NCBI RefSeq assembly: GCF_003334385.1
Contig: NZ_QOWN01000136.1
Origin: Escherichia coli
GTDB taxonomy: Bacteria > Pseudomonadota > Gammaproteobacteria > Enterobacterales > Enterobacteriaceae
Direction: 5' to 3' (one strand)
Length of the DNA: 997 bases
Shown one piece after another: positions 357 to 817 of this stretch; positions within the stretch are counted from its first letter, which is position 1; every line of letters begins with the position of its first letter. A model generated the notes under the pieces. It ran no database searches, was not told where the DNA came from, and saw only the letters and a program-made list of their open reading frames with translations. The translations under genes were made by a program, and so were the position numbers.

Positions 357-419
357 TGGGCAGATAGAGCGGTTTATTTCATTCCACAGGATTCTGAGTG
401 CCCACCCTCCTCCAATAGG

Positions 420-523
420 CTGAGCATCCACCTATATAGTTTTAATTTTCATCAATCCATTTAACTATCGTTTAATTGTTGTCACATAGGATTCTGCCGT
501 TTTTAACAATGCAGGATAATAAG
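420..523 (+). promoter_or_regulatory. AT-rich bor upstream region with a Shine-Dalgarno (AGGA, 513..516) and a weak candidate sigma70 promoter
   Basis: AGGA at 513..516 sits 7 nt upstream of the ATG at 524. The region is visibly AT-rich; ttgtca at 479..484 is a near-consensus -35, but no convincing -10 hexamer sits at the proper spacing, so the promoter call is weak. Lambda bor is known to be expressed from its own promoter in lysogens. Confidence 0.3.
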
Positions 524-817
524 ATGAAAAAAATGTTGTTTTCTGCCGCTCTGGCAATGCTTATTACAGGATGTGCTCAACAGACGTTTACTGTTGGAAA
601 CAAACCTACAGCAGTAATACCAAAGGAAACCATCACCCATCATTTCTTCGTTTCGGGAATTGGGCAGAAGAAAACTGTCGATGCAGCAAAAATTTGTGGT
701 GGTGCAGAAAATGTTGTTAAAACAGAAACCCAGCAAACATTCGTAAATGGATTGCTCGGTTTTATTACTTTAGGCATTTATACTCCGCTGGAAGCGCGTG
801 TGTATTGCTCACAATAA
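524..817 (+). CDS. bor: Bor/Iss-family outer-membrane lipoprotein (lambda Bor homolog, serum-resistance lysogenic conversion factor), 97 aa
   Basis: Translation MKKMLFSAALAMLITGCAQQTFTV...GIYTPLEARVYCSQ. Signal peptide with lipobox L-I-T-G-C; the lipidated Cys is codon 17 (572..574) and residue +2 is Ala, consistent with outer-membrane sorting. The C-terminal two thirds matches lambda Bor as recalled; the N-terminal part carries several substitutions. Length equals lambda Bor. The track ORF starting at TTG 476 is the same frame extended upstream; ATG 524 is preferred because of the RBS and signal-peptide geometry. Confidence 0.95.
   Translation: MKKMLFSAALAMLITGCAQQTFTVGNKPTAVIPKETITHHFFVSGIGQKKTVDAAKICGGAENVVKTETQQTFVNGLLGFITLGIYTPLEARVYCSQ

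Follow-up and report, generated by a model that had tools for sequence, protein, structure and literature searches.

Between the lysis genes and the cos site of a lambdoid prophage of Escherichia coli lies a stretch of DNA that is poor in G and C and has GC-richer neighbours on either side, which raises the question of what this stretch is and where the unit that it marks begins and ends. The sequence analysed here, referred to as the window, was a 997-nt stretch of E. coli DNA taken at its full length. An initial annotation, made from the letters of the sequence, had outlined positions 360–817 as an AT-rich region composed of the gene bor and its upstream DNA, and had read this region as a moron that was acquired horizontally, carries its own promoter, and was inserted into the late region. 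The moron concept comes from Hendrix and colleagues, and HK97 gene 15 and lambda lom are examples. The AT-rich block is best explained, with a probability of about 0.88, as a bor/iss moron that is exchanged among lambdoid phages and ColV plasmids and would carry a PhoP-type promoter. The moron reading was thus supported, and the bor/iss cassette of a lambdoid prophage is in itself an already described, ordinary feature.

Identity of the locus

A lambdoid prophage of E. coli SCU-104 matched the window with 99.9% identity. At least a part of the window was matched in 5,247 of 5,426 complete E. coli genomes, and in 1,102 of them the match extended over 80% or more of its length. In the orientation of the window, the late phage genes were located on the minus strand. 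The left end of the window (residues 1–78, minus strand) was composed of the cos region, in which positions 1–46 were the reverse complement of the left end of lambda (46/46 identity with NC_001416 1–46), including the 12-nt cohesive end (cosN) at 35–46, and positions 47–78 were the reverse complement of the right end (96.9% identity with lambda 48471–48502). In the SCU-104 locus, the small terminase gene nohD/Nu1 had its start 144 nt beyond the left edge of the window. The right end contained the 3′ ends of two minus-strand lysis genes, Rz (i-spanin; 849–997), with the C-terminus ...MQKQLEGTQKYINEQCR* seen in the translation and the annotation, and Rz1 (o-spanin; 908–997), which was embedded in Rz and terminated in ...PPPPPAWIMQPPPDWQTPLNGIISPSERG* in its translation.

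The bor/iss coding sequence was located at 524–817 on the plus strand and encoded 97 amino acids followed by a stop codon, in agreement with how RefSeq annotates the SCU-104 locus. A Shine-Dalgarno-like AGGA (513–516, plus strand) was positioned 7 nt 5′ of the ATG. The gene of the window carries the NCBI name iss, which stands for increased serum survival. The protein matched the Pfam family PF06291 (Lambda_Bor; E = 4.6e-30), with residues 19–95 aligned to model positions 1–75 of 75, and PHROG 260 (E = 1.5e-58) over residues 1–97 of 97, and it was 92.8% identical to lambda Bor. Because the NCBIfam search with Bor gave sub-threshold matches only, the identity of the protein rested on Pfam and PHROGs. 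The translation had an N-terminal lipoprotein signal, MKKMLFSAALAMLITG|C, with the lipobox Ile-Thr-Gly-Cys and the codon of Cys17 at 572–574, and its match to Pfam LPAM_1 was weak (E = 4.1). The protein therefore combined the family-profile match with the signal peptide, the lipobox, and the invariant cysteine of the Bor/Iss family. The lambda-end identity, the profile matches, and the translations agreed with the labels that had been attached to the cos-proximal part, to bor, and to Rz/Rz1, all of which were correct.

Base composition of the window

The GC fraction was 0.395 at 360–817, compared with 0.535 at 1–359, 0.528 at 818–997, and 0.527 at 850–997. In Fisher tests, 360–817 differed from 1–359 (p = 7.4e-5), from 850–997 (p = 5.6e-3), and from 818–997 (p = 2.6e-3), and the shift toward AT relative to both flanks, which had been noticed by eye, was therefore real. 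A two-breakpoint maximum-likelihood segmentation of the window gave a log-likelihood gain of 17.2, whereas the gain in 200 shuffles averaged 6.4 and reached 13.3 at most. As the gain was larger than that of all 200 shuffles, the heterogeneity exceeded that expected by chance for a homogeneous sequence.

The best breakpoints were 432 and 934, which divided the window into segments of 53.2%, 38.6%, and 69.8% GC. The edges at 360 and 817 were consequently only approximate, and the best-fitting AT-rich block extended over 433–934. The region 360–432 was still 52% GC, and the deepest trough, of 27.5% GC, was located at 433–523, directly upstream of bor. On the other side, the Rz tail (849–934) was 40.7% GC and hence as AT-rich as bor, so that the GC-richer right flank consisted essentially of 935–997. 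The 69.8% GC of this segment was caused by the proline codons of Rz1, of which the proline-rich part (PPPPPAWIMQPPPDW) overlaps with Rz. When the module described below was taken as the unit, positions 345–924 were 40.7% GC and the rest of the window was 55.6% GC (54.1% at 1–344 and 63.0% at 925–997; p = 3.5e-6).

These values allow for an explanation in which the contrast is created mostly by the flanks, with bor unremarkable for the AT-rich right arm of a lambdoid phage and its neighbours GC-rich through dual coding, cos, and hairpin elements. The GC-rich neighbours, namely the proline run of Rz1 at 935–997 and the left flank (56.7% GC over 165–344), did contribute part of the contrast. The last 1.46 kb of lambda, starting at lambdap78 (47,042–48,502), had a GC content of 38.8% and hence no left-hand contrast, and the lysis genes R and S of the prophage were merely 47–48% GC. 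However, bor was 7–8 points lower than R and S and ~11 points lower than the whole Rz gene (51.1%), and its GC content at third codon positions (GC3) was the lowest of 17 genes. Moreover, windows of 458 nt with a GC content of 39.5% or less made up 0.7% of those in 27 kb of host core genes. A contrast made mostly by the flanks is thus very unlikely.

In 13 kb of the same prophage, 6.6% of the windows of 458 nt were equally AT-rich, and they mapped to bor, to the surroundings of an opposite-strand porin gene, and to the Q and nin regions. The porin gene (L001 8100–9690), oriented against late transcription, was situated between Q and S, 1.1–2.7 kb to the right of the window. It was annotated as ompC, and its position corresponded to that of the nmpC gene of DLP12. 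Its upstream region was just 27–30% GC, which formed a second moron-like compositional dip in this prophage.

Codon usage of bor

The bor gene was 40.1% GC with a GC3 of 31.6% (31/98), compared with 51.1% and 53.2% (82/154) for Rz, and the difference in GC3 was significant (Fisher p = 1.1e-3). Among the 17 genes in the 13-kb prophage stretch, with a mean GC content of 51.1% and a GC3 of 53.1 ± 7.5%, bor was the lowest in GC3 (z = −2.9). Against 27 host core genes, with a mean of 52.7% GC and a GC3 of 57.7 ± 5.0%, the deviation was larger (z = −5.2). The codon usage of bor was therefore atypical with respect to both Rz and the host. The bor alleles of lambda, 933W, and DLP12 were likewise AT-rich (41.5–43.2% GC).

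An AT-rich gene with AT-rich upstream DNA could also arise from local functional constraints rather than foreign origin, that is, from promoter and intergenic DNA that is AT-rich by nature and from a small lipoprotein rich in Lys, Asn, Ile, and Thr. The deepest trough, at 433–523, is indeed non-coding upstream DNA, and the GC content at second codon positions of bor (40.8%) was normal for host genes (z = +0.2). Re-encoding of Bor with host codon frequencies gave an expected GC content of 49.3%, slightly below the host mean of 52.7%, which represents the effect of the amino-acid content. The observed value, however, was 40.1%, and most of the deficit was therefore synonymous and did not come from the amino-acid content. 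The AT-rich block, moreover, ended near a mosaic junction inside Rz and not at a gene boundary, and a bor-less junction of a related phage had no dip, as described below. Functional constraint is an unlikely source of the dip, and the moron reading was retained.

Cassette exchange at the left junction

On the left side, bor and its upstream DNA were preceded by a conserved GC-rich flank of 180 nt (165–343). According to blastn and the junction alignment, this flank was common to lambda, 933W, and Turner, which carry bor, and to BP-4795, PhiR40_1, and Stx2_PV06-102, which are bor-less. Every arrangement diverged right after ...GACGATACAGCGCA at 330–343, with the cassette junctions at 343/344. 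The adjoining segment of the window (344–469, plus strand; 40.8% GC over 345–469), whose boundaries were obtained from blastn and the alignments, was specific to an ‘iss-type’ allele, and its first ~90 nt were still about 52% GC.

In BP-4795, the flank was followed by ~10 nt and then by the stop codon of Rz. The blocks homologous to window 165–343 and 868–997 were just 32 nt apart in this phage, and these 32 nt corresponded to the 524 nt of window 344–867. The GC profile over the bor-less junction stayed at 49–65%, with no dip. Stx2_PV06-102 was compared with its sister phage 933W, and the left and right flanks were 97% and 91% identical, respectively. Between these flanks, 933W contained 459 bp with bor, and Stx2_PV06-102 contained 747 bp with a Rha-like regulator. 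The latter cassette (L006 2101–2847) encoded, on the late strand, a 183-aa Rha-like regulator or anti-repressor (phrog_518, E = 8e-89), and its position at the bor site points to a hotspot of cassette exchange. The site between Rz and the flank is thus occupied by bor, by another cassette, or by nothing. The proposed insertion of bor into the late region was borne out by the empty site of BP-4795 and the alternative cassette of Stx2_PV06-102.

Bor was found in 195 of 462 phage records that shared part of the neighbourhood, with a protein identity of at least 90% in all of the 195, and the phages that carried it ranged from lambda-like siphoviruses to 933W-like Stx phages. The module was also present on ColV-type plasmids, with 88.6% identity. 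Its occurrence in differing phages and on plasmids, together with the composition of bor, fits horizontal spread of a cassette.

The opposite history, in which bor was ancestral at this locus and was lost or replaced in the bor-less BP-4795, PhiR40_1, and cdtI, has to be considered at this point. Presence and absence are symmetric and alone cannot tell gain of bor from its loss in any lineage. The presence of bor in 195 of 462 records, the match of some part of the window in 5,247 of 5,426 E. coli genomes, and the replacement of cassettes that clearly occurs at the site are compatible with such a history. The composition of bor, by contrast, was unlike that of every neighbouring gene, without amelioration, and Bor retained at least 90% identity across phages whose Rz, terminase, and structural genes were diverged or unrelated. 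In 933W, furthermore, a BP-4795-type Rz with a lambda-type tail was joined to bor, which is the signature of an imported module. An ancestral bor is accordingly given little credence, and acquisition by gain is the probable direction.

The flank at 165–343, which separates the lysis module from the packaging genes, had several features of its own. It was non-coding by a codon-position test and held a long hairpin with arms at 261–270 and 316–325. Lambda had a compensatory swap from C-G to G-C in this hairpin, and the other variants were G-U compatible on the minus (late-mRNA) strand only. The flank may be a recombination linker or an RNA element of the late transcript. An open reading frame at 132–356 (plus strand) in the left flank was rejected as a gene. 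The substitutions were evenly distributed over its codon positions (12:7:11), 933W and lambda had an in-frame stop codon, lambda also had a 1-nt deletion, and NCBIfam gave no match to this frame. Between cos and the conserved flank (78–165), the window had 88 nt, compared with ~368 nt with small ORFs in Turner (L002 3078–3445), which represented another indel or mosaic junction. The ~368-nt version was also present in mEp332, 434, and several lambda-like phages, and some of its ORFs were annotated as members of the YlcI/YnfO family. An 11-nt perfect inverted repeat around bor at 360–370 and 846–856 (GCAGATAGAGC / GCTCTATCTGC) resembled the ends of a mobile element, but this reading was rejected. 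Of the composition-matched shuffles, 29% had one or more repeats of this kind, the left arm was not conserved in pVM01 or Turner, and the right arm was the region of the Rz stop codon.

Mosaic junction inside Rz

The right boundary of the exchanged unit was located by means of 933W, of which the Rz gene was chimeric. It was of the BP-4795 type over most of its length and of the lambda/window type for the last ~70 nt. At the sites informative between the window and BP-4795, 933W followed the window through position 915 and BP-4795 from 924 on. The switch was therefore at about L008 2616–2625, corresponding to window 915–924, within about 10–20 nt of the GC breakpoint at 934. The crossover block in Rz was identical in nearly all alleles. 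The Rz C-terminus that accompanied the bor module was ...TQKYINEQCR, compared with ...AQDYIRTQCLN, and the module overlapped the stop codon of Rz1.

The position of this switch indicates that the exchanged unit includes the last ~70 nt of Rz (849 to about 920). Thus, the AT-rich block marks a mosaic module of ~344–920 and not the bor ORF alone. The proposal of a mobile cassette was upheld in this respect, and its limits of 360–817 had to be replaced by those of a larger moving unit, from about 344 to about 920.

Upstream region of bor

Transcription from pR′ cannot yield a bor message, since the gene is oriented against the late operon. A scan of the window for sigma-70 consensus promoters returned 0 sites, compared with 1.5 expected, and the argument for a promoter was consequently based on alignment and the literature. 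In PhoP-activated promoters of E. coli, the direct repeat (T/G)GTTTA-N5-(T/G)GTTTA replaces the −35 element and is located ~12 nt upstream of the −10 hexamer. The alignment revealed a PhoP-box-like direct repeat, CATTTA-ACTAT-CGTTTA (CATTTAACTATCGTTTA), at 458–474 on the plus strand of the window. It had 3 mismatches to the consensus and was in the same register as the perfect box TGTTTAGGGTTTGTTTA of lambda, 933W, and DLP12. In lambda, the perfect box ended 52 nt before the ATG of bor (chance expectation 0.04) and was followed 12 nt later by TACGAT, and the perfect boxes of 933W and DLP12 were seen by alignment with lambda. Turner and the iss gene of plasmid pVM01 had the same degenerate box as the window, likewise with TAGGAT 12 nt farther on. 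A PhoP-box search of the window that allowed up to 2 mismatches did not return the repeat at 458–474 and gave only a chance-level site at 224–240 on the other strand. The candidate −10 hexamer, TAGGAT (487–492, plus strand; TACGAT in lambda), followed the PhoP-like box at a distance of 12 nt and was part of the conserved block CACATA(G/C)GATTCTGC.

The upstream regions of bor/iss were divided into two types with unrelated segments. The lambda type, found in lambda, 933W, and DLP12, had a segment of 55 nt and the perfect PhoP box, whereas the iss type, found in the window, phage Turner, and the ColV plasmid pVM01, had a segment of 123 nt (347–469) and the degenerate box. From 470 on, within the second half-site, the window was again homologous to lambda. 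The promoter core (GTTTA … CACA(TA)GGATTCTG) seemed to be present twice in the window, at 371–398 and 469–498, with a spacing of 98–100 nt. The upstream copy was degenerate and was located in the iss-type segment, and the repeat search returned only a 12-nt part of this duplication. The copy could be the remnant of a duplication or a second promoter.

The borD gene (vboR) of DLP12 has been treated as a member of the PhoP regulon, with a PhoQ-dependent rise in expression (PMC5740661, PMC2789325). Expression of DLP12 borD from the prophage has been reported (PMC5740661), and lambda bor is expressed in lysogens (PMC7067206, PMC2147009). By analogy with these homologues, the allele of the window probably has a promoter of the activator-dependent PhoP type, with transcription predicted to begin near 500, from which bor would be expressed in the repressed prophage. 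As to the suggestion that bor has its own promoter, the empty sigma-70 scan speaks against it, and the degenerate PhoP-like box aligned with the perfect boxes and the published expression of homologues speak in its favour.

Hairpins downstream of bor

The 31-nt gap between the convergent genes bor and Rz contained an inverted repeat that formed a hairpin with 11-nt arms and a 4-nt loop (824–849). The RNA fold of 818–860 had an energy of −20.6 kcal/mol (z = −4.6), and the hairpin was not followed by a U-run. It is a possible 3′-end or terminator structure for either transcript. A pattern scan found a terminator-like site at 876–900 on the plus strand, antisense within the Rz tail, with a 5-bp stem followed by TTGTTTTTGC. 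The stem of this putative terminator was weak, with a fold of −7.1 kcal/mol (z = −1.7) compared with −3.3 kcal/mol in BP-4795. The site was limited to the bor-linked alleles of Rz, which have CAA AAA CAA, whereas the bor-less alleles have CAG AAG CAG. A canonical intrinsic terminator was thus not found 3′ of bor, as the strong hairpin had no U-run and the site with a U-run had a weak stem. The sole match of an Rfam search of the window at E ≤ 1 was to ES205 at chance level (21 bits compared with a gathering score of 86), and no known RNA family was found.

A more elaborate interpretation may be formulated from these elements. The module, wider than bor and with its right junction inside the overlapping Rz/Rz1 genes (915–924), would bring its own Rz tail, of which the A-rich synonymous codons create the terminator-like U-run for bor on the other strand. 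On the left, the module would in all cases join directly to the final base of the 165–343 flank, and the hairpin element would be a dedicated recombination linker or an RNA of the late transcript that makes the site an exchange hotspot. This combination is rather doubtful, and it is proposed only tentatively.

Proposed origin of the AT-rich block

In the preferred reading, the bor/iss moron would be a self-contained accessory cassette of small size, with the lysis genes (S-R-Rz/Rz1) on one side and cos/terminase on the other. The gene would be carried on the strand opposite to late transcription, and its predicted product would be the 97-aa outer-membrane lipoprotein Bor/Iss. The composition of the cassette would be foreign to both phage and host, chiefly through synonymous codons that end in A or T. 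Its very AT-rich upstream region would hold a PhoP-type, activator-dependent promoter rather than one of the sigma-70 consensus. Exchange among different lambdoid phages and onto ColV plasmids would occur by recombination in conserved flanking sequence, with the 165–343 flank on the left and the universally conserved block of Rz/Rz1, at about 916–960, on the right. Recombination in the right block would take the last ~70 nt of Rz along with a module of ~344–920, and the AT-rich block continues beyond bor to ~934.

The bor/iss gene has long been known as a virulence-associated gene of lysogenic conversion, and the present results are of little importance beyond correct annotation. They are refinements that leave the current understanding unchanged, namely the exact boundaries of the module, the finding that the Rz tail belongs to it, and the distinction of two types of promoter region. 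The two types could bear on the regulation of serum-resistance alleles in pathogenic E. coli.

Comparison with known systems

Morons are described as having a GC content unlike that of their neighbours and their own promoter and terminator, and Bor is named among the moron-encoded proteins (PMC3594210). They form independent transcription units whose products benefit the lysogen (PMC3594210). Like morons in general, the bor locus of the window was additional DNA at a place where related phages have contiguous sequence, with a composition unlike that of the surrounding genes. It differed from typical morons in that its promoter appears to be activator-dependent (PhoP type), no canonical terminator was evident 3′ of bor, and the module overlapped the end of Rz/Rz1, a lysis gene of essential function, and was not cleanly intergenic.

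The bor gene of lambda (lambdap77, nt 46459–46752) was arranged as in the window, between Rz and cos in the same orientation, with a downstream hairpin and the Rz tail, and its locus had 92.3% DNA identity with window 470–997. It was AT-rich like the gene of the window, with 43.2% GC and a GC3 of 35.7%. Lambda differed in that another segment of 55 nt, with the perfect PhoP box, replaced window 347–469, and in that ~1.7 kb of further AT-rich DNA was located between bor and cos, compared with ~300 nt in the prophage of the window. In E. coli K-12, borD (vboR) of DLP12 was the same gene at the same position, with essD-rrrD-rzpD/rzoD followed by borD on the opposite strand. DLP12 differed in the lambda-type upstream segment with the perfect PhoP box and in the presence of ybcV, ybcW, and ylcI before nohD.

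The iss gene of pVM01, a representative of the ColV/IncF virulence plasmids, aligned with window 244–997 in a single piece with 88.6% identity. It shared with the window the degenerate PhoP-like box, the conserved −10 block, and the Rz/Rz1 fragment, and it differed in that it was 11% diverged and located outside a phage context, adjoined by IS2. In published work, chromosomal iss or bor could not take over the role of the plasmid gene in serum survival (PMC4313913). Lambda Bor and plasmid Iss are alike in conferring serum (complement) resistance and in their outer-membrane location, according to the account of Barondess & Beckwith 1995 relayed in PMC3594210.
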